Virus record (IMG/VR): IMGVR_UViG_3300022602_002120
Coordinates: 1 to 64,000 of that record
DNA from: a virus
Length of the DNA stretch: 64,000 bases
Reading direction: 5' to 3' (one strand)
Made by a program: the position numbers and the translations under genes. The notes below the pieces were generated by a model. That model was not told where the DNA came from. It ran no database searches and was given only the letters and a program-made list of their open reading frames with translations. Below are positions 5,953 through 59,808 of the stretch, in pieces (position 1 is the stretch's first letter; the number at the start of each line of letters is the position of its first letter).

Positions 5953-7189
5953 ATTTTTCTAACCATGGGAATAAAACTTTCCAATTTGTATTTCTTCTAC
6001 GATCTAATTCATCTAAATACGTTAACAATTTCAATACTTCTTCTTTATTATATATTGATTTTTCGATCGTTGCAACTATACCTTCCATATATGTTTTTGC
6101 ATGGCCACCACGCCAGGTGTCGGTTTCCATTAAATTTAAAATTTTTAAAAAATCTTCCTTAAATTCATCTGGGCCTAAAATGGCAGGATGCAGATAACTT
6201 GGATATCCTATAAGAGCAAAATAATGTTCTATCTTTCGATCTTTTGTCCAATTATTAATTCGTTCTATTAAATCTGGTAAAGTCTTTATAGTTAAAATCG
6301 AAATTGTATTATTAACATTTAATTTAATCCATCGTTGGCTGATTAAATATTCAAAATTTTCTTGCCATTTGTCTAATTCAATCCCGAATCGAACAAATTC
6401 TTGTTCAGGTCCCCAGCAATCAATACTACATGTTATTTCTAATGTTTTTAATTTTCTAAGTTTTAATAAGTTTTTAAATCTATCAATATAATTAATTAAT
6501 TTAGATTTTGAAATTACTAGATTAGTTACAATATTAAATTCTAAATTAGGACAGGGATTATTTTCAAAAAATTCTATAAAAGTATCAAACTGCTTTTGAT
6601 AAAATGGTTCACCACCCAACAACTGTAGTCTTACTAATGTATGTGCATTACCTTTTAACCATAGCCAAAACTGTTCTTGAATTTCTTCATAATTGCTAAC
6701 TCTATGATGTTTTGTTTCTAAAATTAACCCGTTTTTATTAAAAGGTCCAAACTTTATCATCTCATTATGAATTTTAGAACTTAATTCAGGAATACAATAT
6801 ACACAACTTAGATTACACACATTATCAATATATACTTCTAATATTGTAGGCGAAACTGAAGTTGCAGATGGATTAATTTCAAGTTCATTTGGTGATAAAT
6901 TGGGCACATGTGAAAAGAATTGCCTATCACTTTGACCTATTCCAGTATTCTCTATATTTTCACAATATTCACACCCTGCCTTAGGCCACTTACCTTGCAG
7001 CATTGTTTCACGTTGTTGAATTTTTTCGGGTGTATTGTGAAAATTAAAGGTATTAATGTCAAACGGATGATCTTTAACCCTGTGACAACTAGAAGTTATT
7101 CCATAATGTAGAGTAACTTTTGAAAATGCCCATTTTAACTGACATGCTGTTTCTGTCTTAATTGGGAAAAACTTTTCAGACACGATCAA
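5942..7189 (-). CDS. Radical SAM protein
   Basis: CNLSCVYC (CxxxCxxC), LLGGEPF and SIDC...RFG; extra N-terminal Cys cluster. Confidence 0.9.
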   Translation of the reverse strand: MIVSEKFFPIKTETACQLKWAFSKVTLHYGITSSCHRVKDHPFDINTFNFHNTPEKIQQRETMLQGKWPKAGCEYCENIENTGIGQSDRQFFSHVPNLSPNELEINPSATSVSPTILEVYIDNVCNLSCVYCIPELSSKIHNEMIKFGPFNKNGLILETKHHRVSNYEEIQEQFWLWLKGNAHTLVRLQLLGGEPFYQKQFDTFIEFFENNPCPNLEFNIVTNLVISKSKLINYIDRFKNLLKLRKLKTLEITCSIDCWGPEQEFVRFGIELDKWQENFEYLISQRWIKLNVNNTISILTIKTLPDLIERINNWTKDRKIEHYFALIGYPSYLHPAILGPDEFKEDFLKILNLMETDTWRGGHAKTYMEGIVATIEKSIYNKEEVLKLLTYLDELDRRRNTNWKVLFPWLEKYVV

Positions 7190-7428
7190 TAATCTTCGTC
7201 TTCTTCGTCATCGTAGTCGGCTTCTTCAACTGTTTCGCCTAGATATTCTTCAACAGCACGTTTAAGATAGCTATCAGTACCACCCACAGCAATAAGATCG
7301 CGCTCTAAAATATTATGATCAGCTACCACGCTGATCAAATGATCAGCGGCAGCTTGACGATCTTTCGGATTGATATACTCTTTACAAGTTAACCAAACTT
7401 CTCCTACTACATCGATTTCAATGCTCAT
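7186..7428 (-). CDS. Hypothetical protein (80 aa, acidic tail)
   Basis: In-operon ORF with overlapping junctions. Confidence 0.75.
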   Translation of the reverse strand: MSIEIDVVGEVWLTCKEYINPKDRQAAADHLISVVADHNILERDLIAVGGTDSYLKRAVEEYLGETVEEADYDDEEDEDY

Positions 7429-27865: not shown

Positions 27866-28028
27866 TAGTCATTTCCCTTTCTAACTCACGTTTAACCATT
27901 TTGTATGCTGTCTTATCGTATATATCCAAGTCATCCCATTCACTATTCATTTGTGTTAGAGCTTTCCATAGATCACGATTGTAAAATTGTACCGCTGAGT
28001 ACGCTTCTTCTATAGTCATAATTAGCAT
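27855..28028 (-). CDS. Small hypothetical protein (57 aa, MLIMTIEEAYSAVQFYNRDLW...)
   Basis: Below the ORF-track cutoff; found by manual translation; overlaps both neighbours. Confidence 0.55.
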   Translation of the reverse strand: MLIMTIEEAYSAVQFYNRDLWKALTQMNSEWDDLDIYDKTAYKMVKRELEREMTNGN

Positions 28029-28201
28029 TATTTTTGTAGTGTGTATTTAATTAAAATATTTTTTGCTTCTGTAACATCAGTAATAGGTTCTAACTTATCT
28101 AATGTAATTAGTTCATTATGTAGATTAATAGTACGTTGTGCTTGATATAATCTATTATATTTTCCGTCTGGATAAGACGGTTGTGTCCAAGAGTGTTTCA
28201 T
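28028..28201 (-). CDS. Small hypothetical protein (57 aa, MKHSWTQPSYPDGKYNRLY...)
   Basis: Manual translation; TAATG coupling to the next ORF. Confidence 0.55.
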   Translation of the reverse strand: MKHSWTQPSYPDGKYNRLYQAQRTINLHNELITLDKLEPITDVTEAKNILIKYTLQK

Positions 28202-28203
28202 TT

Positions 28204-35500: not shown

Positions 35501-37320
35501 GCACCAGTTGCTTGAGTAGTGTTTGTTATTGTTGTAATGCCACCAACACCTAGTGTGTTGTTAATTTGTGTAGCACCACCAATAGTTGCTGTAAGTGCAA
35601 TATTCGCTGCACCTGCAACACTAATACCACCGTTAGGTACTACAATAGCACCTGTACCTTGTGTAGTAGTTGCTATACTTGCGTTAGCCCATAGACTGTT
35701 CGAAACCCCCAATATACTCAATGTACCAGTAGCACCCAAAATGTTACCAGTTACATTCAAGTAGCCAGTTACAGTTTCGTTGCCATTAACTGTTAGGGCG
35801 TTAAATGTACCAGCTTGTCCTAATACGTTACCAGTTGTATTAATTTGACCTGCATTTAGTTGTGGGGTTGAGACGTTACCAGCACTGTTAATATATCCAG
35901 TTGATGTAATACCACTAAATGTGCCTTGTGCGCCTAATATGTTGCCAGTTACATTCAAGTAACCAGTCACTGACTCGTTTCCATTTACCGTTAATGCGTT
36001 AAATATACCCGCTGTTGCTTCTACATTACCTGTAGTATTAACTTGGCCTGCATTTAACTGTGGTGTCGAAATGTTGCCTGCAGCATTAATATAGCCACTA
36101 ATAGTTTCATTTCCGTTTACTGTTAATGCGTTAAATGTACCAGCTGTTGCTAGAACATTACCTGTTGTATTAACCTGTCCTGCATTTAGTTGTGCAGTTG
36201 AAATATTGCCTGTGGTGTTGATATAACCGTAGGCTGAAATATTACCATTGACACGTAAGTCGTTGTATATACCAGCAGTGGCAATAACGTTACCTGTCGT
36301 ATTAATTTGTCCTGCGTTTAGTTGTGGTGTTGAAATATTACCACTGGTATTAATATAACCAGTTGAATTTATAGCACCAAACACACCAACAGCGGCACTT
36401 ACATTGCCTGTTGTGTTGAAATATACAGGGCCGCCTGCCGAAGTTTGTGTAATATTACCTACTACGTTAACCCATGATCCGCTAACTTGGCCTGCTAGAC
36501 CCAGTGAAGTATTACCAAATACGCTTAAGCCAGTTGATAGTACATTGCCTGGTGTATTAAAGTTAGCAGCAAACACAGTAGCATTACTATTAAATCCGCC
36601 TGCGCCTACTAGAATATTTGATACGTTAATAACTGAGGAATTTGTAGTACCGTTGACAGTTAATGCGTTATGTACTGCACCTGTTGATAATACATTACCA
36701 GTTGTATTAATTTGACCTGCGTTTAGTTGCGGAGTTGATATATTACCTGCGGCATTGATGTAACCACTAATGGTTTCATTGCCATTTACTGTAAGTGCGT
36801 TAAACACACCACCGCTGGCTAATACGTTACCACTTACGTTTAAACTTGCGGTTGTAATTATGTTTGTTACAGAAATAGTACCAATGTTTGCTTGACCTGG
36901 TACATTTAAGCTACCAACACTTAAACGTGATAAGCCTGCGCTGTTAACGTTACCGTAGGTTGTACCTGTTTCGTTAGTAGCAATAAGACGGAATTCGCCA
37001 AAGTACTCACTCCAGATAATAGCTTGGTTTTGACTAGTACCACGATTGAAAATTAAACCTTCATCGTAACTATTAGTACCACTAAAACCATTGTTTAGTA
37101 CTACCAATGGATCGTTAACGTAAGTGTTGGTACTAGCAATAGTTGTATATGAGCTAGAACCTAATACAAACAAGTTACCCGAAATTAATAAGTCACCTGG
37201 TACTGTTACGTTACTAGAAAATAGTGAACCTGTAATAGATCCGTCTGCAATTTTCTGACTAGCAATAATAGTTTTGCTATAGATTTGATTATTCAGTATT
37301 CTGGTTAATGCACCTGACAT
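32557..37320 (-). CDS. Long tail-fibre-like protein (1587 aa) with internal repeats
   Basis: G/N/T/V-rich; about 10 copies of NALTVNGNE-type repeats; C-terminal modules shared with neighbouring genes. Confidence 0.8.
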   Translation of the reverse strand: MSGALTRILNNQIYSKTIIASQKIADGSITGSLFSSNVTVPGDLLISGNLFVLGSSSYTTIASTNTYVNDPLVVLNNGFSGTNSYDEGLIFNRGTSQNQAIIWSEYFGEFRLIATNETGTTYGNVNSAGLSRLSVGSLNVPGQANIGTISVTNIITTASLNVSGNVLASGGVFNALTVNGNETISGYINAAGNISTPQLNAGQINTTGNVLSTGAVHNALTVNGTTNSSVINVSNILVGAGGFNSNATVFAANFNTPGNVLSTGLSVFGNTSLGLAGQVSGSWVNVVGNITQTSAGGPVYFNTTGNVSAAVGVFGAINSTGYINTSGNISTPQLNAGQINTTGNVIATAGIYNDLRVNGNISAYGYINTTGNISTAQLNAGQVNTTGNVLATAGTFNALTVNGNETISGYINAAGNISTPQLNAGQVNTTGNVEATAGIFNALTVNGNESVTGYLNVTGNILGAQGTFSGITSTGYINSAGNVSTPQLNAGQINTTGNVLGQAGTFNALTVNGNETVTGYLNVTGNILGATGTLSILGVSNSLWANASIATTTQGTGAIVVPNGGISVAGAANIALTATIGGATQINNTLGVGGITTITNTTQATGASTGALQVAGGASFSQDVWIGGNLFVSNIIGVQANVITVQDPLLYLRPNVTTPYNYDIGFYSAFTGVGLGTINQYQHTSVFRDPTDNTWKFVSNLAEPSASYITLDGTTVYDPIKAGNLNLVNTTAATTTGTGALIVAGGAGIGGTLVAGQLNSTGNVLGQAATFNALTINGNETITGYLNVTGNVMTAQLNAGQINTTGNVLATAGVFNALTVNGNESVTGYLNVTGNILGASGTLSGLTVNGATTQNGTLTVSSGFINSSGNILATAGTFNALTVNGNESVTGYLNVTGNVMAAVVTASQLNTTGNVLATAGVFNALTVNGNESVTGYLNVTGNVMAAVVTASQLNTSGNVIAQNGVLNGLTVNGNETISGYINAAGNISTPQLNAGQINTTGNVLATAGVFNAMTVNGNESVTGYLNVTGNVLATRVDATVLAATGVIWANSTTDTTSTTTGAIITQGGISAAGNIYAGKNIYVGRATAFSIALNYPTVVAVDNGSTYAQMAILNTANTGSADYAAYSSAGNDTAGWADMGFTGNAFNDGNYTITKPNDGYFFVKPESSTWGGNLVLATSQTGNFNDIVFGVGSFQSTAEVMRFHSNVSNNGNAWLKYTTVSTTTNTGALRVDGGVGIAGNVRAGGGAVFNSTQGHDPFVVMGSTTTGLIYADPNNAAVTVGGGGYNGTGSVSTTPGASFKVQSTDSMMVPVGTTAQRPSGGGGNVDVAGMMRFNSTVSQLEFYDGSQWQTAGSVFTVISDRQFSGNSGAYGHVDGTNTSFTLQASSTTSATIVSINGVIQFPVLAYSVSGSTLTFTEPPAPDDVIDARVLATTTVVSSITSGNGLNQFLCDASGSQIWSGTNASGTIERINVDTSGNFNYLTGNKVTYTQPVVNIPTASTPVVIDTFPTSSYTTAKYIVQVKTGNTAEAAEILLTQDTVTPYLTTYGVVGNIMGVFSCSISSGNVNLYYTSNSLTNSNVKVMTTYIV
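34230..36800 (-). repeat. Imperfect ~17/33-aa coding repeats (GQINTTGNVLATAGxFNALTVNGNExxxGYxNxxGNI)
   Basis: Repeats visible in both protein and DNA, e.g. recurring ccagttacattcaagtaaccag and gcatttagttg. Confidence 0.85.
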
Positions 37321-37427
37321 GGAAAACTCCGCTTTAAATTATATTTTACACTATTATTTGCCTGCGGTTCCATATCCCCAAGGCCTACGATGTGTGGTTT
37401 AATGTATTTATGCTGAGTTTGGGAAAA

Positions 37428-38876
37428 CTAAAGTGGGTAAAAATTGCGGCTAACTGTAAGATAAGTGTTAGATATCACAGGAGTATATTGAATTTGAACA
37501 TTACTACCGCTGATGCTTGCTGATATATTACCTAGCACATTACCAATAGTAATCACCCCATAGGTTGTCGAAGTTGCTGTAGTACCGTTATGTGTAACTA
37601 AGGTTTCGTAACTTTGTACATCACCGGCATTAACAGCTTGAATTACGTATTTTGCAGTTCTATAACTAGTGGTACTATAACTATCAATGGTTGCAGCCAC
37701 ATTAGGTGTTGCTATTAAGGTATTGGCTAGATTGTTATAGAATCCAGTGGTCTGGATGTTACCAACCATGTTTATATTATATCTGTCTAAGGTTACAGAT
37801 GTGTAATTATTAAAACTCAATCCGCCAACAGTAACAGCACTAGGTGCCATTAAACGTACTTCAATTGAATCCGTTGTTAATGGAATTTCAGTAAATTGAA
37901 TTTGGTTATTATTAATGATATTATATGAATAACCAGGTTGTTGAATAGTACCGTTGATGCTTACAAACACACCAGATGAAGTTGTATTAGAACTTAGTGC
38001 ATAGGTATTACTTGTGCCATCAGGGTTGATAGTCTGACTACTAATTGTTGCCTGTCCTGGTGATATCCAGTTAGTACCGTCATAGTATTCAATTGTTTTA
38101 CTTGTGGTATTAAAACGTGTATATCCTACATAAGCACTACTTGGTCTAGATGATTGATCACCAGCTGGCAGTCCCAATGCATCGGTACCTAAAATCTGTA
38201 CAATACCTGTGCCAGGTGCATTTAATACAATATTGCCGTTGGTCTCTTTAGTTGAAATAGTGTTACCACTAAATGTAAAGTTGCCTAAAATAGCATTACC
38301 AATATTGCTAGGCGTGGGTAATCCTAGATTGCCCGCATAAACCCCGCCGCTGATATAAACACTATTACCTGCAAAGCTAATAGGGCTACCACCGCTATAC
38401 GGTGTGTTGTTGCTGTTAAAGTTTAAGATACCTGCTTGATAGTCAAATACCCATAGGTCATTACTACCACTACCAGTGGCAAATACCTGTGTACCTTTAC
38501 TAGCTACGTTAGCAGCATTACCACTAGGTGCAATATAGACTTTAATTTGATAAGTTGATCCAAACTCTGGTGGTACCCAGAATGTACGTCCTGTTTGCCA
38601 TGTCAATGTTGGAGTAGGAATGCCTGCTGTGCTAGTACATTCTACAGGAAATGCTGTCGGATATACTGTTACAACACTGCTATTACTTGACGGAATAACT
38701 CCGGGAATTTGATCAGAATTTTGTAAGATTTTATCAGCACGAATTTGTAGCGGGCTTGGATTAGGTTCGTTAGTTGCGTCGATGTTACCACTAATATCAG
38801 TCTTAGCGGCACCGTAGACTATTTTCTTCCAAAGATAGTCAACCTTCTGCGAATCTGGTGCGTTCTGTATCGCCAT
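37428..38876 (-). CDS. Fibre/baseplate-associated structural protein (482 aa)
   Basis: Shares three modules with the 1587-aa fibre. Confidence 0.7.
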   Translation of the reverse strand: MAIQNAPDSQKVDYLWKKIVYGAAKTDISGNIDATNEPNPSPLQIRADKILQNSDQIPGVIPSSNSSVVTVYPTAFPVECTSTAGIPTPTLTWQTGRTFWVPPEFGSTYQIKVYIAPSGNAANVASKGTQVFATGSGSNDLWVFDYQAGILNFNSNNTPYSGGSPISFAGNSVYISGGVYAGNLGLPTPSNIGNAILGNFTFSGNTISTKETNGNIVLNAPGTGIVQILGTDALGLPAGDQSSRPSSAYVGYTRFNTTSKTIEYYDGTNWISPGQATISSQTINPDGTSNTYALSSNTTSSGVFVSINGTIQQPGYSYNIINNNQIQFTEIPLTTDSIEVRLMAPSAVTVGGLSFNNYTSVTLDRYNINMVGNIQTTGFYNNLANTLIATPNVAATIDSYSTTSYRTAKYVIQAVNAGDVQSYETLVTHNGTTATSTTYGVITIGNVLGNISASISGSNVQIQYTPVISNTYLTVSRNFYPL

Positions 38877-44238: not shown

Positions 44239-44661
44239 TTAGTTTGTAGCTACGTTAGCCATTGTAGATGTAGCTGCAATTTGAATATCATAAGCCCAAC
44301 GATTGCCATTCCAGTCGACTACCCAGTGATCTTGTAATTCTTTAGCATAGAATTGTGTACCTGTGTAGTCATAACATATAACACTTGCTTGACCGGCTGC
44401 TAGATTACCAATGTCTGTGTTACGTAGATACACTGTAGTGTTAGCGTTAAAACTTGAGCTGTCGGCTACATCAAATCTGTGTTTACTACGTTGTTTGTAT
44501 GCAAAACCGTGTGCATGTGTTGTGCCTGTTGAGTCTGCATATTGGAAATCGATTGTGTATACGCCTGTTACTGCGTATGGTGCACCAATTGTACCACCAA
44601 TGCCACTAGCATATCCGATATCGTTTGTACTGCCTGATGTTAATTTAATAGGACGTCCCAT
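44239..44661 (-). CDS. Putative decoration protein (140 aa, starts MGRPIK)
   Basis: Paralogous N- and C-termini with the next gene; late promoter at 44741-44746; SD AAGGAG. Confidence 0.6.
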   Translation of the reverse strand: MGRPIKLTSGSTNDIGYASGIGGTIGAPYAVTGVYTIDFQYADSTGTTHAHGFAYKQRSKHRFDVADSSSFNANTTVYLRNTDIGNLAAGQASVICYDYTGTQFYAKELQDHWVVDWNGNRWAYDIQIAATSTMANVATN

Positions 44662-44753
44662 TTGTTTTTCTCCTTATGGTTGGCGTTCTAGGCCTACGCG
44701 GTGGGTGCCGCATAAACTCCCCTTACGGAGCGAACACATATATTTATCGTAGC

Positions 44754-53883: not shown

Positions 53884-54750
53884 ATGAGTCAAACTCCATC
53901 GTTTAATCAAGCTAACCCATTAGCTAGACACTTTAGACAACCAGTGATCTACACTAAACTACCTAGTCGCGGTCAGTTTTGGCCAGAAGGTAGTATAGAC
54001 ATCCCTGTTACAGGTGAAATTCCTATTCTAGCAATGAGTACTAAAGACGAAGTTATTCTACGCACACCAGATGCACTGTTAAACGGGCAAGGTGTTATTG
54101 ATGTTATTCAAAGTTGCTGTCCAACTATTAAGAACGCATGGGAAACTCCTAGTATTGACGTAGACAGCATTATTATCAGTATTCGTATTGCTAGTTATGG
54201 TAATAATATGGAGTTTACCAGCACTTGCCCACACTGTAATACCCAGCATGACTATAGCGTTGATCTAGGAGTAGTTCTACAGGGCATCGAAACACCTAAC
54301 TACAGTAGAGGTGTTGACGTAGATGGTCTTAAAATTAAACTACGTCCGCAACCATACTTTAGTCTTAACAAAACTAACATCATTGCTTTTGAAGAACAGC
54401 AATTGTTACGATCACTACAGATGATTGAAGATAATTCAGACGAAGCACAGGCTAAATTTAATGCACAGCTGAATAAACTAATCGATCTTAACATTATGAT
54501 CACTGCCGACAGTACAGAAAGCATTACCACAGAAGACGGACAACTAGTAACTGATCGTAGTTTTATCAAAGAGTTCTACACAAACTGTGATAATAAAACA
54601 GTTAAAGCGGTTAAAGCTCGTTTAGATGAATATAACAAACAAGCCAACATTAAACCATTTAATGTTATCTGTAGCGAAGAAGACTGCGCTAAGCCATTTG
54701 ATATTGATATTATATTCGATTTTGCAAGTTTTTTCGGAAAAGGCTCTTAA
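53884..54750 (+). CDS. gp26: Baseplate hub assembly / tail chaperone gp26-like
   Basis: LPSRG.F, DEVILRTPDALLNG, IRIASYG, CPHC and C-terminal C..C motifs; late promoter at 53838-53843. Confidence 0.8.
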   Translation: MSQTPSFNQANPLARHFRQPVIYTKLPSRGQFWPEGSIDIPVTGEIPILAMSTKDEVILRTPDALLNGQGVIDVIQSCCPTIKNAWETPSIDVDSIIISIRIASYGNNMEFTSTCPHCNTQHDYSVDLGVVLQGIETPNYSRGVDVDGLKIKLRPQPYFSLNKTNIIAFEEQQLLRSLQMIEDNSDEAQAKFNAQLNKLIDLNIMITADSTESITTEDGQLVTDRSFIKEFYTNCDNKTVKAVKARLDEYNKQANIKPFNVICSEEDCAKPFDIDIIFDFASFFGKGS

Positions 54751-54965
54751 CTCTAGATAACGCCAGCGTCGTGTCCTTACTCGAAGGATATGACAAAGAA
54801 GTAAGAGCCTTAAAAGATGATGCGTTACGTATGTGTTGGTATATGCGTGGTGGGTTAAGTTATGATGATGCTATGTTGCTAAGTCAAACAGAAAAAGAAA
54901 TTATCAATAAGATAGTTAAAGATAATTTAGAAACTACCCAAAAGAGTCATTTGCCTTTCTTTTAA
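54708..54965 (+). CDS. gp51-like ORF, possibly reached by a -1 frameshift from the gp26-like gene
   Basis: Frame open from 54708; no SD before the GTG at 54771; slippery T-TTT-TTC at 54729-54735. Confidence 0.6.
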   Translation, partial: YYIRFCKFFRKRLLTLDNASVVSLLEGYDKEVRALKDDALRMCWYMRGGLSYDDAMLLSQTEKEIINKIVKDNLETTQKSHLPFF

Positions 54966-55059
54966 TAAAAGTCATTATATTACATACAAGAGTAGTTGTG
55001 TGGCATATATTCTAGACTAATCCATTTGTGTAGTATAATTCGTAATATATTCCATACAA

Positions 55060-55500
55060 GAAAGATGTCTCTGACATCTGCGTTATCGCTATCGCTCAAC
55101 GCTTTTTCTTCTAATCTAAATTACGTTAGTTATTTTGAATTACTGTACTGCTCTTAAACGTTATCATCCAGATTTGGTCATACTTCACCTATCCGAGGCA
55201 AAGTATAAGTCGCATCATCCGAGTTGACAGTCATACTAACTAAAAGAGATTGTTAATCAATAACACGGAGGCGGTCAGCCGGTACCCCCTACTCTAGCTT
55301 CTTCTGACGGGTGCTGTATAGCCATAGTTAGCTAACTATACTAGTCACGTGAGTTGTATTGCTTTTTCTTCAGAGCTCACATCATTTGGCGTTTAGGCCT
55401 AATTGATCGTCGGTGCCATCCAGTGTGTAGTCTACTCTACACGTTCCAAGTGCGGCCATTACGCGAGCACCATCTCCTCTGGATACAGAACTTAATCTGC
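55060..55500 (-). ncRNA. Candidate large structured non-coding RNA (family not recognised)
   Basis: About 550 nt with no ORF in the track; more GC-rich than its flanks; long-range closing helix and multiple hairpins whose G.U pairs form only on the minus strand. Confidence 0.65.
55063..55079 (-). terminator. Terminator-like hairpin at the 3' end of the candidate ncRNA
   Basis: AGATGTC-AGA-GACATCT followed by TTCTT on the minus strand. Confidence 0.55.
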
Positions 55501-55512
55501 AATAGGGCTAAT

Positions 55513-55950
55513 TTACTTCTTTATTACTAGATCTTTTACTGAATTCTTGCCAAGTTTAATTTGTATAATGCCGTTGTAGTTGTTTTCACGAAGTAATACA
55601 TGTTCTGTGAATTGGTAGTAGGCCTCTAAGTAGTTTGTTTCGCCTCTACTGTTACATAAATGAATTATGTCACGAGTAAAGTTTTCTTTGCCATGTGTGT
55701 CAATATCTGCTTGTAGTCGCGGACTAGATCCCCAGTAGGTCTTCCAATCTGTTTCTACAACTTCACGACGTTTGTTTTTCTTGCCTTTTAGAGGTGGTCT
55801 CTTTTTGATAGTAGTGAAATATTTGCGGCCAACATAATCGTGACCATTTATATTATTTGTAATTCTGTAGATAAAACCATAATAAGTGCCGATATCCTCG
55901 GATTCAAATGCTACACCGTTATAAATCCAAGGATAATCGTATGATGCCAT
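55513..55950 (-). CDS. Minimal GIY-YIG family nuclease (145 aa)
   Basis: GFIYRITNNINGHDYVGRK, YWGSS, LEAYYQF, NYNG; no C-terminal DNA-binding domains. Confidence 0.85.
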   Translation of the reverse strand: MASYDYPWIYNGVAFESEDIGTYYGFIYRITNNINGHDYVGRKYFTTIKKRPPLKGKKNKRREVVETDWKTYWGSSPRLQADIDTHGKENFTRDIIHLCNSRGETNYLEAYYQFTEHVLLRENNYNGIIQIKLGKNSVKDLVIKK

Positions 55951-55953
55951 AAG

Positions 55954-56145
55954 TTATTTAGCGGCTTTAGCTGCGTTTTTCTTCTCTTGAATTTCTGCAC
56001 GACGAGCTTTGGTTAGTTTACCTAGGTCGCCCAATGCACCACGAGCACGTGTTCCTGCCGCTGCTACACCTTTTTCTTCAAATTTAGCATGTTCTGTTAA
56101 GTATGCTTCATATGCTGCTACGATTTGTTCATGATTTGTTGCCAT
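55954..56145 (-). CDS. Histone H1-like Hc1-family small basic protein
   Basis: KFEEKGVAAAGTRARGALGDLGKLTKARRAEI resembles Hc1 (EKGNKAAAQRVR). Confidence 0.7.
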   Translation of the reverse strand: MATNHEQIVAAYEAYLTEHAKFEEKGVAAAGTRARGALGDLGKLTKARRAEIQEKKNAAKAAK

Positions 56146-56166
56146 TTTTTACTTCTCCTTGTGAAA

Positions 56167-57183
56167 TTACCATTCTGTTGCGTACTGCTGATTTACCACT
56201 GATATATTACATTTAGTCCTACATTCGGTCCTGGAGAAAATTTCAAACTCTTCGCTCCAATACTGGTCATTTAGGACCTCATTTAATGATCTTTGATTCA
56301 GATCAAACTGGTTCTTACTTACATCTAACCACTCGTTGTTATGTGAATATCTATTTGCTACCCAACAACAAGGAAATAAATGTCCTTGACTGTTGATAAA
56401 CAAACCCTTATTACCGATTCCACATAACGGAGTTACTTCGCCAAACGTTTCTGCTTGGTTATATAATCTTAAATTAGTTTTTGCACCTACTGTACTTTCT
56501 TTACGTTCATTGAATTGTGTAAAAATCCGTTGGAATCTGTAGTTAGTACTAATTAAGTTATCCTTGGGCTGTAATTGGTCGCTTTCTGGGTATATACTAT
56601 ATACTTTATTAAACTTTGTACTTAACGTCAACTGAAATTGATCAAACCCTAGTTCTTTGGCCAACAATTTCATATCATCTAATTTATCTTCGTTAAATTT
56701 AAATGCAATAGCATCCCAGGTCATATAAACATGACTGCTATTGCGTAAGGTAGTAACGCCTTGAATGATACTCGACCAATTGCTGTTTATACGATATTGT
56801 TCGTTACTGCCTTGATCCCATCCATCCAAACTAAAGTGAATATGATCATTATGATCTAATGCTTGCCCTAGTCTAGCCCACCAGTCAACATTTTTATAGC
56901 TACCGTTGGTAACAATAACAAATTTCACTGGTTTAACACTTTTAATATATTCGATCACGTCTATTAAGCTATGTGCATATATAGGATCACCATCGTCGCC
57001 ACAAAACGTAATCTTTTCTACGTTGTCTTGTATAAATTCTGGAGTAAAATTCTTCTTAAAGAAATTTAAACTTAATTCTGTGTTTACTAAGGTGTCGGGA
57101 ACTTCTGTGCGAGCACAGCGCGGACATTTTAATGTACACTTACTGGATATTTCGATATGCCAATGCCACGTTGCTAATTTCAA
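56167..57183 (-). CDS. Radical SAM protein with a Cys-rich C-terminal (twitch/SPASM-like) domain
   Basis: CTLKCPRC, FCGDDGDP, FSLDG, C...LFINSQGHLFPCCW. Confidence 0.9.
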   Translation of the reverse strand: MKLATWHWHIEISSKCTLKCPRCARTEVPDTLVNTELSLNFFKKNFTPEFIQDNVEKITFCGDDGDPIYAHSLIDVIEYIKSVKPVKFVIVTNGSYKNVDWWARLGQALDHNDHIHFSLDGWDQGSNEQYRINSNWSSIIQGVTTLRNSSHVYMTWDAIAFKFNEDKLDDMKLLAKELGFDQFQLTLSTKFNKVYSIYPESDQLQPKDNLISTNYRFQRIFTQFNERKESTVGAKTNLRLYNQAETFGEVTPLCGIGNKGLFINSQGHLFPCCWVANRYSHNNEWLDVSKNQFDLNQRSLNEVLNDQYWSEEFEIFSRTECRTKCNISVVNQQYATEW

Positions 57184-58073
57184 AATTCGACCTCACGTTG
57201 CCATTGGTTTGAGTAACTTGTACCATTTAAGTTTTTTGTACAGGTTGCAACACAAGTTGCATTAGGTGATATCGAATCCCAGGATTCTTGCACAATGTTA
57301 AAATAGTCAATAGTGTGACTAGTATTGCCCAACCAGCAACACGGATACACTATACCCTTGGTAGAAATATATAGACTTTGTTCTTTAAGAGCAACACAAT
57401 CAATAGTTCCGATATTTACACTAGGATTTTTCCATCCGGTAGGGGGATTTAAAAAAGATATAGGGTGATTAGTATGCCGACGACTAACTTTAGCTCGAAA
57501 CCATTTAAATCCTAATTCTTTTGCTAATGTTTGTGCTTGATCTACCTGATGTTGATTATGTTCAAATACTAACATTTCCCAGTGAGCTCTACCGCCGGCG
57601 GCAATAAATGCCTGCGCATTTTCTATAACCTTATCCCAACCAACATTTACTCTGTATATGTGATTGGTATCGTTTAATCCGTCGATACTAAAAATTACAT
57701 AATCTTTCTGATAAGATAACATTGCACCTAAAGAACTCCACCAAGTAGTAGACCGTAGACCTCCATTAGTATTCATACCTAATGTTATTGTGGGATTTAA
57801 TTTACGAAAATAGCTATAAATTTCTAAGGTGTGCTTGCCTGCGGCAGGATCGCCATAATTTCCACACATATACATCTTGTCTAATGCTTTGATAGTATCT
57901 TCTGAAATAGCATCTGCTATATTATCTACAGTTAAATGGTGCAGCACAGACTTATCAAACGTAGGATCAGTTTCTCTGCTACATTGCGGACATGCAGCAT
58001 TACAAGCATCTGTAGGTTCTACGTGTAATATTTTAGGTAACATCAACATCAGTATTATATGTAGTAAATCCAT
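57180..58073 (-). CDS. Radical SAM protein, tandem paralogue (true start probably 58049 or 58043)
   Basis: CNAACPQC, MCGNYGDP, FSIDG, LYISTKGIVYPCCW. Confidence 0.9.
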   Translation of the reverse strand: MDLLHIILMLMLPKILHVEPTDACNAACPQCSRETDPTFDKSVLHHLTVDNIADAISEDTIKALDKMYMCGNYGDPAAGKHTLEIYSYFRKLNPTITLGMNTNGGLRSTTWWSSLGAMLSYQKDYVIFSIDGLNDTNHIYRVNVGWDKVIENAQAFIAAGGRAHWEMLVFEHNQHQVDQAQTLAKELGFKWFRAKVSRRHTNHPISFLNPPTGWKNPSVNIGTIDCVALKEQSLYISTKGIVYPCCWLGNTSHTIDYFNIVQESWDSISPNATCVATCTKNLNGTSYSNQWQREVEF

Positions 58074-59808
58074 TCTCTTTTACTACTGTTAAAATATTGT
58101 TTACACGACCCGCTAGTTCATCTTTATGCGATACTAACCAAATAGATTTGTTATTCTCTCTGGTCATTTTCTTAAGGATAGCAAGAGCATTTTCTACACC
58201 CGACGTATCCATACCGCTGTCAACAAGTTCGTCGATAAACAATAAGTTAATTGGTTGATATAAACTTTCCCACACATCACGGAATGCCCATGATAAGCTA
58301 AGGATAAGTCTATTGCGCTCTCCACGGCTTAAGTTATCAAAATCTAACTCTCTGCCTAATTCTTCAATTTGTACACTTAGATCATTTAAGAATTTAACCT
58401 GATGTGGTAATCCAATTTTATCTAAGTAGTGGCTTAAGCGAGCATTTAAATAGCTTAAGTTCTGATCAATAATGCGTTTACGAATATAACTGTCTTTATT
58501 AGTTAGTAATTTATGTAGGAACTCTTGGTGTTCTTTAATACGTACTAGTTCATTCATATTAGTATAATCAATTTCAGCAAGTGCTGTAGTGCGCATTTCA
58601 GCTATCTGTTCTGTATAAGGATCAGTTTCTGCTTGCTTACTTATTAATTGTGTTTGTAAACTAGCCACAGTACTACGATGATGGATAGCATCTTCTTCTT
58701 TATCATAGTAAACTTTAGGTGGCGCACCTAATTCTCCTAATGCTGATTTGGCATCGCCTAGGTCTAATAGTAATTTCTCAGCGGTACTATAAGCTAAAGC
58801 TGACTCCTCTAATGATGCTTGTTTAGTTGCTAATACTTCTTCATGCTTGCTATCGTGTAAGTCTTGACCGCAAGCATAACATTTGTGATTGTTTAAGTCG
58901 GCAATTTCTTTGTCTAATTTTTTAATAGTTTTTTGCTCGCGATCCATATCGTTGCTAGCACGCTGTAAAGCTGTGTTAAGGTCTGTTAGGTCTCTACGCT
59001 TTTGATTGTATGCTGTGAGTTTTTTGTGAGCAGCAATTTCAGCGTCAATGTCGATGTGGGATAATTCTTCAATGGCAGCTACTAGCTTTGACACATCCTC
59101 AATATGTTTAGTAGTCCACATAGTTTGGCGACGTTCTAAGCTAACAATCTGTTCTTCGATACGCTTATTAGCATCAGTAATTGCTTTGATGTTAAATTCT
59201 TCTTGAGTAATCGCATCTCTGGTTGCTTTACTTTGCTCTTTAAGTGCTTCTGCTTTTTCACTTAATAGAGTAATACCAAGTAATTGTTCAATAATAGCAC
59301 GCTGATCATTCGCCTTAAGACTTAAAAACGGTTCTGTGTAGGTGTTAAGTGCAACAATGTGCTTGAACATGTCATGAGACATGCCTAGCAAGCGTTCAAT
59401 TTCGGCTTGTGTTTCTCGACTGTCACCTTGACTGTTATCATCTTTAGCTTCTTGTTCGATATCTCCAATATAAAACTTCATTACATTATGTTTACGACCG
59501 CGCTCAATCTTATAGTCGACCCCATTTACTTCAAAATCAATAGTAACTAACATGTTCTTAGCGTTAGTTTTATTGATCAAGTTATCTTTACGAATATTAG
59601 TTAGAGCATTGCCGTATAAGGCATAACTTAATGCGTTAATGATAGTAGTTTTACCTGTACCATTACGTGCTCCGCTGTCATCACCACCTAAGTCAATATT
59701 CTCGCCTAGGACTAAGGTCAAGTCCTTGCGATCAAAGTTGACGGCCTGCGTAGCATTACCCACACTCATAAAGTTTTTAACTGTAAGATATTTGATACGG
59801 AAACTCAT
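58033..59808 (-). CDS. gp46: Recombination endonuclease subunit gp46 (SbcC/Rad50-like ATPase)
   Basis: NGTGKTT, CYAC zinc hook, LSRGE signature, LLFIDELVD. Confidence 0.95.
   Translation of the reverse strand: MSFRIKYLTVKNFMSVGNATQAVNFDRKDLTLVLGENIDLGGDDSGARNGTGKTTIINALSYALYGNALTNIRKDNLINKTNAKNMLVTIDFEVNGVDYKIERGRKHNVMKFYIGDIEQEAKDDNSQGDSRETQAEIERLLGMSHDMFKHIVALNTYTEPFLSLKANDQRAIIEQLLGITLLSEKAEALKEQSKATRDAITQEEFNIKAITDANKRIEEQIVSLERRQTMWTTKHIEDVSKLVAAIEELSHIDIDAEIAAHKKLTAYNQKRRDLTDLNTALQRASNDMDREQKTIKKLDKEIADLNNHKCYACGQDLHDSKHEEVLATKQASLEESALAYSTAEKLLLDLGDAKSALGELGAPPKVYYDKEEDAIHHRSTVASLQTQLISKQAETDPYTEQIAEMRTTALAEIDYTNMNELVRIKEHQEFLHKLLTNKDSYIRKRIIDQNLSYLNARLSHYLDKIGLPHQVKFLNDLSVQIEELGRELDFDNLSRGERNRLILSLSWAFRDVWESLYQPINLLFIDELVDSGMDTSGVENALAILKKMTRENNKSIWLVSHKDELAGRVNNILTVVKENGFTTYNTDVDVT

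Follow-up and report, generated by a model that had tools for sequence, protein, structure and literature searches.

What is encoded in the largest stretch without open reading frames (ORFs) of a lake-water phage sequence? The question is raised by the window analyzed here, 64,000 nt of DNA corresponding to positions 1 to 64,000 of the IMG/VR record IMGVR_UViG_3300022602_002120, a 188.8-kb myovirus from lake-water samples with an estimated completeness of 53%. Positions 54966-55512 of the window form a gap of 547 nt that contains no ORF of 60 or more amino acids (aa) and lies directly downstream of a minus-strand gene for a GIY-YIG-domain protein. Examination of the sequence alone, by a model and prior to any database search (below, the sequence-only reading), had described this gap as the only large one and assigned to it a large structured phage RNA with a pseudoknot on the minus strand. 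The gap is indeed the largest in the window, the runner-up stretch at the same ORF threshold (27866-28203) having 338 nt, and its G+C content reaches 0.46, compared with approximately 0.35 in the flanks. The comparative analysis demonstrates that the gap encodes a discrete structured non-coding RNA of approximately 445 nt on the minus strand, which starts with helix P1 and finishes with the 3' hairpin T2 (55063-55508) and is defined by its homologues, by covariation and by a covariance model of its core, R1.

Covariation in homologous loci

Homologous loci were gathered via the baseplate gene and via the GIY-YIG protein, and the gap was retained in all of them. In the most distant loci the baseplate protein is only 39% identical, yet the RNA core is 77% identical; among relatives, the identity of the RNA is 61-89% in more than 60 loci. 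A gene-independent search with a degenerate 30-nt core pattern found this pattern in at least 119 viral contigs and in one 6-kb contig of a 'Flavobacterium' metagenome-assembled genome (MAG), and the total set comprises 198 loci. The R1 model scores 165 bits on the window RNA and finds one copy in the 188.8-kb record.

RNAalifold analysis of 40 sequences revealed compensatory changes in 37 of the 78 base pairs. The full model has 99 pairs, including two pseudoknots, and was evaluated on 109 sequences less than 97% identical to each other. Changes on both sides occur in 79 of these pairs; 82.5% of the cells are paired, compared with 41-44% after shifting the partners by 1-3 columns. The covariation score of 0.337 compares with at most 0.104, and none of 500 shuffles reached it. 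The folding energy (z = -1.64, compared with -0.66 for the plus strand) is by itself weak evidence, and the case for an RNA rests on covariation. Mutual information added two tertiary pairings (PK2 and J9 below) that had not been seen in the sequence-only reading. The structure is also informative about the strand. The UG pairs of helix P8 are conserved in 98/109 and 105/109 sequences, and the GU and UG pairs of helix P10 in all 109; these pairs would be mismatches on the plus strand, and thus the RNA is that of the minus strand. The argument that G.U pairs point to an RNA rather than to a DNA cruciform, which had been made from the window sequence, is hence borne out by the relatives, and the comparison of their intergenic regions that it had called for yielded covarying helices at a conserved position.

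The identity of this RNA is not provided by any known family that we compared. ARAGORN detected neither a tRNA nor a tmRNA in the gap, and the Rfam models gave no match there (54500-56400 scanned) even at E<=10, in agreement with the earlier remark that hallmarks of tRNA, tmRNA, RNase P and group I/II introns are missing. Since no model matches, these identities and that of HEARO were rejected. A group I intron carrying a GIY-YIG endonuclease was likewise rejected, since the ORF is separated from the upstream gene by 3 nt, no gene is split, and there is no match to Intron_gpI. A coding function was also dismissed: no frame is kept across insertions and deletions, and a mini-frame of the '[A/G]UG...UGA' type shifts among relatives.

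The bacterial contig with the core pattern (L208; JBBALV010000052.1, 6 kb, 'Flavobacterium sp.' MAG) was the sole match among 185,579 species genomes. Its content is phage-like, consisting of a PNP-type gene and the RNA, and it may represent either mis-binning or a hint to the host.

Architecture of the RNA

All elements described below are on the minus strand, so that coordinates descend from 5' to 3'. The RNA begins approximately 5 nt past the stop codon of the GIY-YIG ORF with a 5' domain (55415-55508) formed by helices P1 (55508-06/55417-15), P2 (55500-497/55488-85), P3 (55484-79/55423-18), P4 (55471-67/55453-49) and P5 (55442-37/55430-25), every one of which has compensatory changes in the 40-sequence alignment. 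Covariation of P3 and P4 replaces two pairings proposed in the sequence-only reading. In particular, a long-range helix between 55478-84 and 55166-72 is not supported, as 55484-79 covaries with 55423-18 and 55172-66 does not vary with 55484-79, and of the further stems listed there the one at 55412-71 is not supported either, 55471-67 covarying instead with 55453-49, whereas those at 55251-65, 55316-41, 55349-80 and 55425-42 all have compensatory changes.

The region 55349-55399 contains P6 (55399-97/55390-88) and P7 (55380-76/55353-49, plus 55372-71/55356-55); the top mutual-information pairs include 55379-55350, 55372-55355 and 55377-55352 of the latter. It is followed by the P8 hairpin (55341-33/55324-16, plus 55346/55313), in which all nine pairs covary, the G.U pairs are conserved, and the loop GCUAACUA is conserved as well. 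The ACUA of this loop forms the pseudoknot PK2 with a downstream UAGU (55328-25/55242-39), where 94-98% of the cells pair and two-sided AU<->UA and CG<->UA changes are observed in 30-44 sequences per pair.

The other pseudoknot, PK1, pairs GUCAG with the P10 loop CUGAC (55308-04/55278-74) and is supported by mutual information and by the matched variants GUCAU/AUGAC, GUUGC/GCAAC, GUCGC/GCGAC and GUUGA/UCAAC; its pair 55305-55277 is GC in 69 and AT in 48 sequences, and the majority form GCCAG/CUGAC contains one C.A. The short helix J9 (AGAG/CUCU; 55295-92/55248-45), paired in 100% of cells and with its pair 55295-55245 switching between AU (82) and UA (23), closes a three-way junction around P10 (55289-84/55272-67, plus 55280/55273), which is also paired in 100% of cells with a G-C to A-U switch at two pairs, and P11 (55265-61/55255-51). 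Compensatory changes thus confirm the hairpin at 55289-55267 and the pseudoknot of its loop with 55308-55304, both of which had been predicted from the window alone.

Downstream of the junction lie P12 (55228-26/55211-09) and the 13-bp hairpin P13 (55208-55196/55190-55178). The latter had been noticed as a shorter hairpin at 55180-55206; it is real, and its extended form contains covarying pairs such as CG:52/UA:36 and GC:47/UA:44. A poorly conserved A/U-rich linker, variable in sequence and length (55103-55162), leads to the 3' tail with hairpins T1 (55102-098/55084-080, plus 55095-94/55089-88) and T2 (55079-73/55069-63). T2, the hairpin singled out earlier as terminator-like and also terminator-like in our scan, is paired in 96% of the cells with 40-48 double changes per pair among relatives; the sequence past it is UUUCUU in the window, and most relatives have just two U there.

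Lineage-specific insertions of 40-60 nt are observed inside the RNA in six loci (L170, L117, L176, L036, L048 and L071). They fall in the P11 loop or past P3 and mark the parts of the fold that tolerate expansion.

Two boxes that change together

The most unusual feature of the RNA is a 7-nt sequence present twice. Box 1 (55214-55223) consists of CUC and the 7-mer GGAUGAU (55220-55214) and lies in the loop of P12, and box 2 (55163-55172) consists of UCU and the same 7-mer (55169-55163) in a single-stranded context with no flanking stem. The boxes are 51 nt apart, one on either side of P13. The 7-mers are identical to each other in 120 of 122 distinct sequences, which together contain 17 variants; three positions commonly vary, and each of their eight combinations is present. 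The flanks stay CUC and UCU. A stem spanning box 1 can be formed from its flanks in 83% of the sequences, compared with 64% of shuffled controls.

Parsimony analysis on a tree inferred from the RNA outside the boxes gave 42 changes for each box and also 42 for the joint character, and therefore every box change is common to both. Recombination could inflate this count, but the eight matched combinations require repeated double changes even so. The boxes are among the faster-changing columns of the RNA. We conclude that the two boxes are kept identical by selection. Identity maintained through dozens of changes is an unusual evolutionary signal that ordinary base pairing does not explain, and it points to a sequence-specific, re-settable function. 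There is no complementarity between box 1 and box 2, and no complementary partner was found elsewhere in the RNA. Box sequences differ among phages whose GIY-YIG proteins are 100% identical, and hence this protein does not co-evolve with the boxes.

Two apparent box partners were rejected: a 12-nt match at 179392, which belongs to the codon run for the HPD motif of a J-domain and is due to chance, and the site GAUUAUCC in the start region of the GIY-YIG gene, which does not covary with the boxes. A likeness to the translational hop of T4 gene 60, suggested by the sense codon plus stop codon that most boxes spell out, was discarded because there is no in-frame ORF or start.

Relation to the Polynucleobacter-1 motif

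The position of the RNA recalls the Polynucleobacter-1 motif (RF01718), described in 2010 (Weinberg et al., PMC2864571). According to the supplement of that paper, most examples are located downstream of a gene family possibly homologous to PSSM2_218, the motif was not found in purified phages, and its 3' half "is not always detected"; the motif was also reported from a Polynucleobacter genome (PMC2864571). Similarly, the window RNA is directly downstream of a PSSM2_218-type gene. The Rfam model has 141 nt and a gathering threshold of 37 bits; it gave no match at E<=10 either in 54500-56400 or in the 5' domain alone (55380-55525), and none in six divergent members of the set (L094, L115, L147, L186, L007 and L111).

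The connection is made by two other loci, both from fresh water. In L105, the 5' domain scores 39.2 bits with RF01718 and is accompanied by the exact window-type core motif; over 355 nt, the core of this locus has 64% identity with that of the window (E 3e-20). In L235, found with an RF01718-consensus pattern, a match of 97.8 bits directly past a GIY-YIG ORF leads into a P10-like hairpin, the box pair CUC-AGAUAAU and UCU-AGAUAAU, and a tail that has 75% identity with the window tail. R1 matches just 3' of the RF01718 matches, with 88.7 bits in L105 and 56.4 bits in L235. Since these loci join RF01718 matches to a window-type core, boxes and tail, RF01718 represents one variant of the 5' module of a more extensive RNA, and the window carries a different 5' module: its 5' domain gives no RF01718 match and lacks the 3' three-way junction of the motif, whose signature (CACUA..CC-loop-GGA..GAAGAUC..) is present only in L105, L121 and L198 and missing from the window and 195/198 loci. 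The remainder of the window RNA is homologous to the RNAs that carry RF01718, and approximately 300 nt comprising the core, pseudoknots, boxes and tail lie outside the model.

Thus the sequence-only suggestion of a new class of large phage RNA requires qualification. The RNA is not wholly new, inasmuch as RF01718 forms its 5' domain in some relatives, whereas the core and the boxes are outside that family. The core, two pseudoknots and twin boxes appear to be undescribed in the literature searched, in which we found no paper after 2010 mentioning the Polynucleobacter-1 motif. An orphan 141-nt motif is in this way recognized as a module of a much larger, doubly pseudoknotted RNA present in hundreds of contigs of aquatic phages.

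Neighboring genes, promoters and expression

The minus-strand gene order in the window is gp47, gp46 (58033-59808), two radical SAM/SPASM genes, a gene for a 63-aa Hc1-like protein and the GIY-YIG gene (55513-55950, minus strand). The latter lies upstream of the RNA and outside it and encodes a 145-aa protein consisting of the GIY-YIG domain only (Pfam SegE_GIY-YIG, E 2.8e-37; 46% identical to PSSM2_218, E 4e-32), whose homologues have equal length. On the plus strand, a gp26-like baseplate hub gene and an ORF of 64 aa, which ends at 54965, run toward these minus-strand genes. The two tandem radical SAM/SPASM genes and the Hc1 (histone H1-like) gene, located at 55954-58073 (minus strand) between gp46 and the GIY-YIG gene, are missing from several related loci.

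The GIY-YIG gene is the upstream neighbor in about 170 of the 198 loci and directly adjoins the RNA in approximately 147 of them; in approximately 25 loci an extra gene intervenes. A PDDEXK_15 nuclease gene occupies this position in nine loci (ten with L186, added by eye), and a gene for a PNP_UDP_1 protein in three. All upstream gene types end approximately 200 nt before the core motif, which fixes the 5' border of the RNA. The junction of the GIY-YIG gene and the RNA is also a hot spot of gene insertion (L016, L020, L023, L033, L046, L055, L057, L076, L085 and others), the inserts encoding proteins of 230-390 aa that include SGNH/GDSL-like, second GIY-YIG-like, radical SAM/SPASM and other types. 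On its other side, the RNA always faces convergent genes, being the last element of a run of genes in one direction.

Homologues of the GIY-YIG-only protein were found in 472 isolate genomes, mostly of T4-like cyanophages. In the three genomes examined (Melnitz-3, P-SSM4 and P-SSM2) there is no RNA-sized gap past the GIY-YIG gene, the following ORFs starting at once or after at most 149 nt. The gene and the RNA are frequent neighbors but separable, which argues for an RNA gene in its own right.

Sigma-70-type promoters were identified in the PNP_UDP_1 clade, TTGACA-17-TATAAT (12/12) in L094 and TTGACT-16-TATAAT (11/12) in L115; they end at the 5' border of the RNA, approximately 235 nt before the core motif. 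The near-consensus late promoter that the sequence-only reading had placed over the upstream stop codon did not withstand comparison: GTAAATTA is present in the window, but ATAAATA occurs upstream of the RNA in none of 186 homologous loci. In the metatranscriptome run X22, a freshwater RNA library, the ORF and portions of the RNA are represented by contigs of relatives, including one that spans the ORF/RNA border, and no skipped or joined form is seen among the RNA contigs; such contigs cannot show ends, strand or level, the library may contain DNA, and the uncovered parts are uninformative.

Candidate homologues in cultured phages

BLAST searches of phage isolates were negative for the RNAs of the window, L007 and L147, and only R1 reached such genomes. 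It matched E. coli phage EJP2 (L257:768-970; 34.6 bits, E 2e-6 in 3.4 kb, and 8e-4 genome-wide at 32.1 bits), Klebsiella phage RaK2 (record positions 7197-7339; 23.3 bits, E 0.04 genome-wide) and Yersinia phage fHe-Yen9-03 (L258:888-1070; 22.3 bits, E 6e-4 in 3.4 kb and 0.06 genome-wide). All three matches are in gene-free gaps of 700-1000 nt with promoter-like sites and retain both the CCGUUG../..CAACC pseudoknot and the GGRAG/CUUCC hairpin; the gap in EJP2 (OQ411014) is located at approximately 36760-37440. In each, a G+C-rich hairpin lies between twin boxes, namely two copies of CGUCAAA in EJP2, of GCGUCAG in fHe-Yen9-03 and of UCUUCAAGAAAU in RaK2. The spacing of the boxes is 51-57 nt in most members of the family, including 51 nt in the window and fHe-Yen9-03 and 56 nt in EJP2, with RaK2 (100 nt) as an exception. 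In RaK2 the gene upstream of the candidate RNA is not a GIY-YIG gene and is unrelated. From these sequence features we regard homology of the three copies to the window RNA as probable, though not proven.

Matches to the EJP2 region were found in 71 isolate genomes, each with 4-5 such places; the genomes belong to jumbo phages of Escherichia, Salmonella, Klebsiella, Erwinia, Serratia, Yersinia, Xanthomonas, Pectobacterium and Cronobacter. Enterobacterial jumbo phages thus apparently carry 4-5 paralogues of the RNA per genome (L257 and L261 in EJP2, L258 and L262 in fHe-Yen9-03), and the second EJP2 copy has two CGUCAG boxes, unlike the CGUCAAA pair of the first. The probable homologues in cultured jumbo phages of E. 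coli, Salmonella, Klebsiella and Yersinia make the question of function accessible at the bench.

In RaK2, the annotated gene RaK2_00014 (ORF014w; L256:973-1626, record positions 6672-7325, minus strand) overlaps the candidate RNA in antisense orientation, within approximately 1 kb that has no other genes, and is probably a mis-annotation. No convincing R1 match was found in PA5oct, Melnitz, P-SSM2 or P-SSM4. PA5oct is the nearest isolate by gp46 (approximately 50% identity) and has no gap past gp46, and its published ncRNA002 and ncRNA004, defined by RNA-seq, do not match (at most 6 bits).

Possible function and alternative explanations

The reading that we favor, with slightly less than an even chance of being correct, is that the RNA is a trans-acting scaffold showing one 7-nt word twice to a single sequence-reading partner. 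Since no promoter of its own was found for the window copy, this RNA probably forms the 3'-terminal part of the gp47-gp46...GIY-YIG transcript. It would then act in trans as a folded scaffold, and not as a message or a mere terminator, displaying box 1 in a hairpin loop and box 2 in single-stranded form. The partner, most likely a nucleic acid, would be bound twice or in turn, and the boxes would constitute a bivalent 'address', which mutation could re-set only through the same change in both copies. The promoters and varied neighbors of some members count toward a discrete, gene-independent unit.

Several observations weigh against this interpretation. Exact complements of the boxes within +-3 kb and +-7 kb on both strands are not more frequent than those of permuted-box controls, complements allowing wobble pairs within +-330 nt show no enrichment or positioning relative to such controls, and the box complement ATCATCC has 20 sites in the 188.8-kb genome compared with 24 expected. 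No promoter of the RNA itself was found in the GIY-YIG clade, including the window copy, so that a role in cis is to be considered. Evidence of expression is thin, as it consists of contigs of relatives in one library with no direct sign of a discrete transcript. The R1 scores in cultured phages are modest (22-35 bits). Finally, identity of the boxes could result from contacts between them within the fold, with no outside partner.

The last of these points leads to the view that the boxes are purely architectural, held together for instance by parallel homo-purine pairs, and that the RNA has some other function such as binding a host protein. Symmetric homo-base pairs would indeed predict identity and not complementarity, no Watson-Crick partner is present nearby, and the 51-nt hairpin connector permits a parallel arrangement; but such motifs are rare in natural RNAs, an A/U position would not need identity, one box is in a hairpin loop and the other on a loose strand, and rapid change is unusual for a structural core. 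We consider this explanation unlikely, and judge no better a cis-acting 3' element that protects the early/middle gp47-gp46 operon transcript from 3' exonucleases, ends transcription ahead of the convergent baseplate genes or tunes expression of the last gene. The invariable position of the RNA at the end of a co-directional run facing convergent genes, the two conserved 3' hairpins, the missing promoter in the GIY-YIG clade and the contig bridging the ORF/RNA border would all suit a cis element. A pseudoknotted core of approximately 300 nt with invariant unpaired bases and matched boxes, however, exceeds the needs of a stabilizer, some members have their own promoter and different neighbors, and in most relatives no more than two U come after T2. 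The suggestion that the locus is not an RNA at all, but either a DNA element (a cruciform, an origin or a site of recombination) or a degenerate homing-endonuclease C-terminal domain, seems scarcely credible. It could appeal to the site between convergent genes adjoining recombination genes, and to full-length Seg-type enzymes, which carry a C-terminal DNA-binding domain that is missing here; against it stand the strand-specific G.U pairs, the 79 compensatory pairs, the two covarying pseudoknots, the failure to keep any frame across insertions and deletions, and the equal length of the 145-aa homologues.

The frequent vicinity of a nuclease gene invites a different explanation, in which the RNA is a subunit of the minimal nuclease and the boxes provide targeting or control, as omega-RNAs do for TnpB and IscB. 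A nuclease gene, from one of two unrelated families, is upstream in approximately 180/198 loci, the GIY-YIG protein is a catalytic domain only and has no DNA-binding domain of its own, and the boxes vary while the protein remains identical, as a guide would. Nevertheless, PNP-type or other genes precede the RNA in some loci, the RaK2 neighbor is unrelated, and GIY-YIG homologues occur in 472 isolates, in the three examined of which an RNA-sized gap past the gene is missing; moreover, any target complementary to the boxes would include the phage's own locus, and none was found in cis or in the genome. This makes a subunit role distinctly unlikely. A broader version, in which the boxes are a programmable address whose two seeds of 7-10 nt recognize a nucleic acid together with the adjacent minimal nuclease or another effector, is improbable as well. 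If it were true, the address could for example distinguish the genome or transcripts of the phage itself from those of relatives infecting the same cell, the system of RNA-directed recognition would be unrelated to CRISPR or OMEGA, and the differently addressed paralogues of jumbo phages would provide several specificities per genome. There is an equally slim chance that the RNA is a precursor cut at the same place in both boxes by a single kind of endonuclease or ribozyme step, which would free a P13 unit of approximately 51 nt, perhaps as a circle or as a nuclease-binding decoy comparable to the repeats of type III antitoxins. Identical sites around a conserved hairpin, at a spacing constant in most members apart from RaK2, agree with such processing, but a tolerant protein would not need identity at the variable positions, no box-complementary guide was found in cis, known self-cleaving ribozymes do not match, and skipped or joined forms are lacking among the RNA contigs.

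Comparison with other RNA systems

As large, intricately folded and pseudoknotted RNAs borne by phages, GOLLD and ROOL are parallels in general appearance; they surfaced via comparative genomics of lake and other metagenomes. The sequence-only reading had considered a diverged RNA of this type, but no sign of such a relationship was found: the GOLLD and ROOL models matched neither the window (E<=10) nor L094, L115, L147, L186, L007 or L111 (E<=5). The present RNA is smaller, no association with tRNA clusters was found, and twin identical boxes are, to our knowledge, not a described feature of GOLLD or ROOL.

The omega-RNA and HEARO elements of TnpB and IscB resemble the present system in that a structured RNA adjoins a small nuclease gene and short segments vary while the protein stays the same. 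The differences are that the nucleases here are of the GIY-YIG or PDDEXK type and not RuvC/HNH, that RNA and nuclease also occur apart, and that the variable part is two internal 7-mers and not a terminal guide of 16-20 nt. Nor did the searches in cis and across the genome bring up a complementary target, and transposon ends are not apparent. In type III antitoxins (ToxI-like), phage versions of which are known, direct repeats with identical processing-site sequences similarly surround a folded unit; here, however, only boxes of 7-10 nt are repeated, inside a large unique fold, and there is no ToxN-like gene nearby.

The window also contains a freshwater-2 RNA (RF02980, 52.4 bits) at 44659-44732 (minus strand), in a late-gene leader just past an ATAAATA late-promoter-like site. 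This RNA and the P6 region of the large RNA (approximately 55401-55384) have in common the run UAGGCCUA(A/G)AACGCCAA, a likeness that may be due to chance, as the P6 stretch varies across the wider family.

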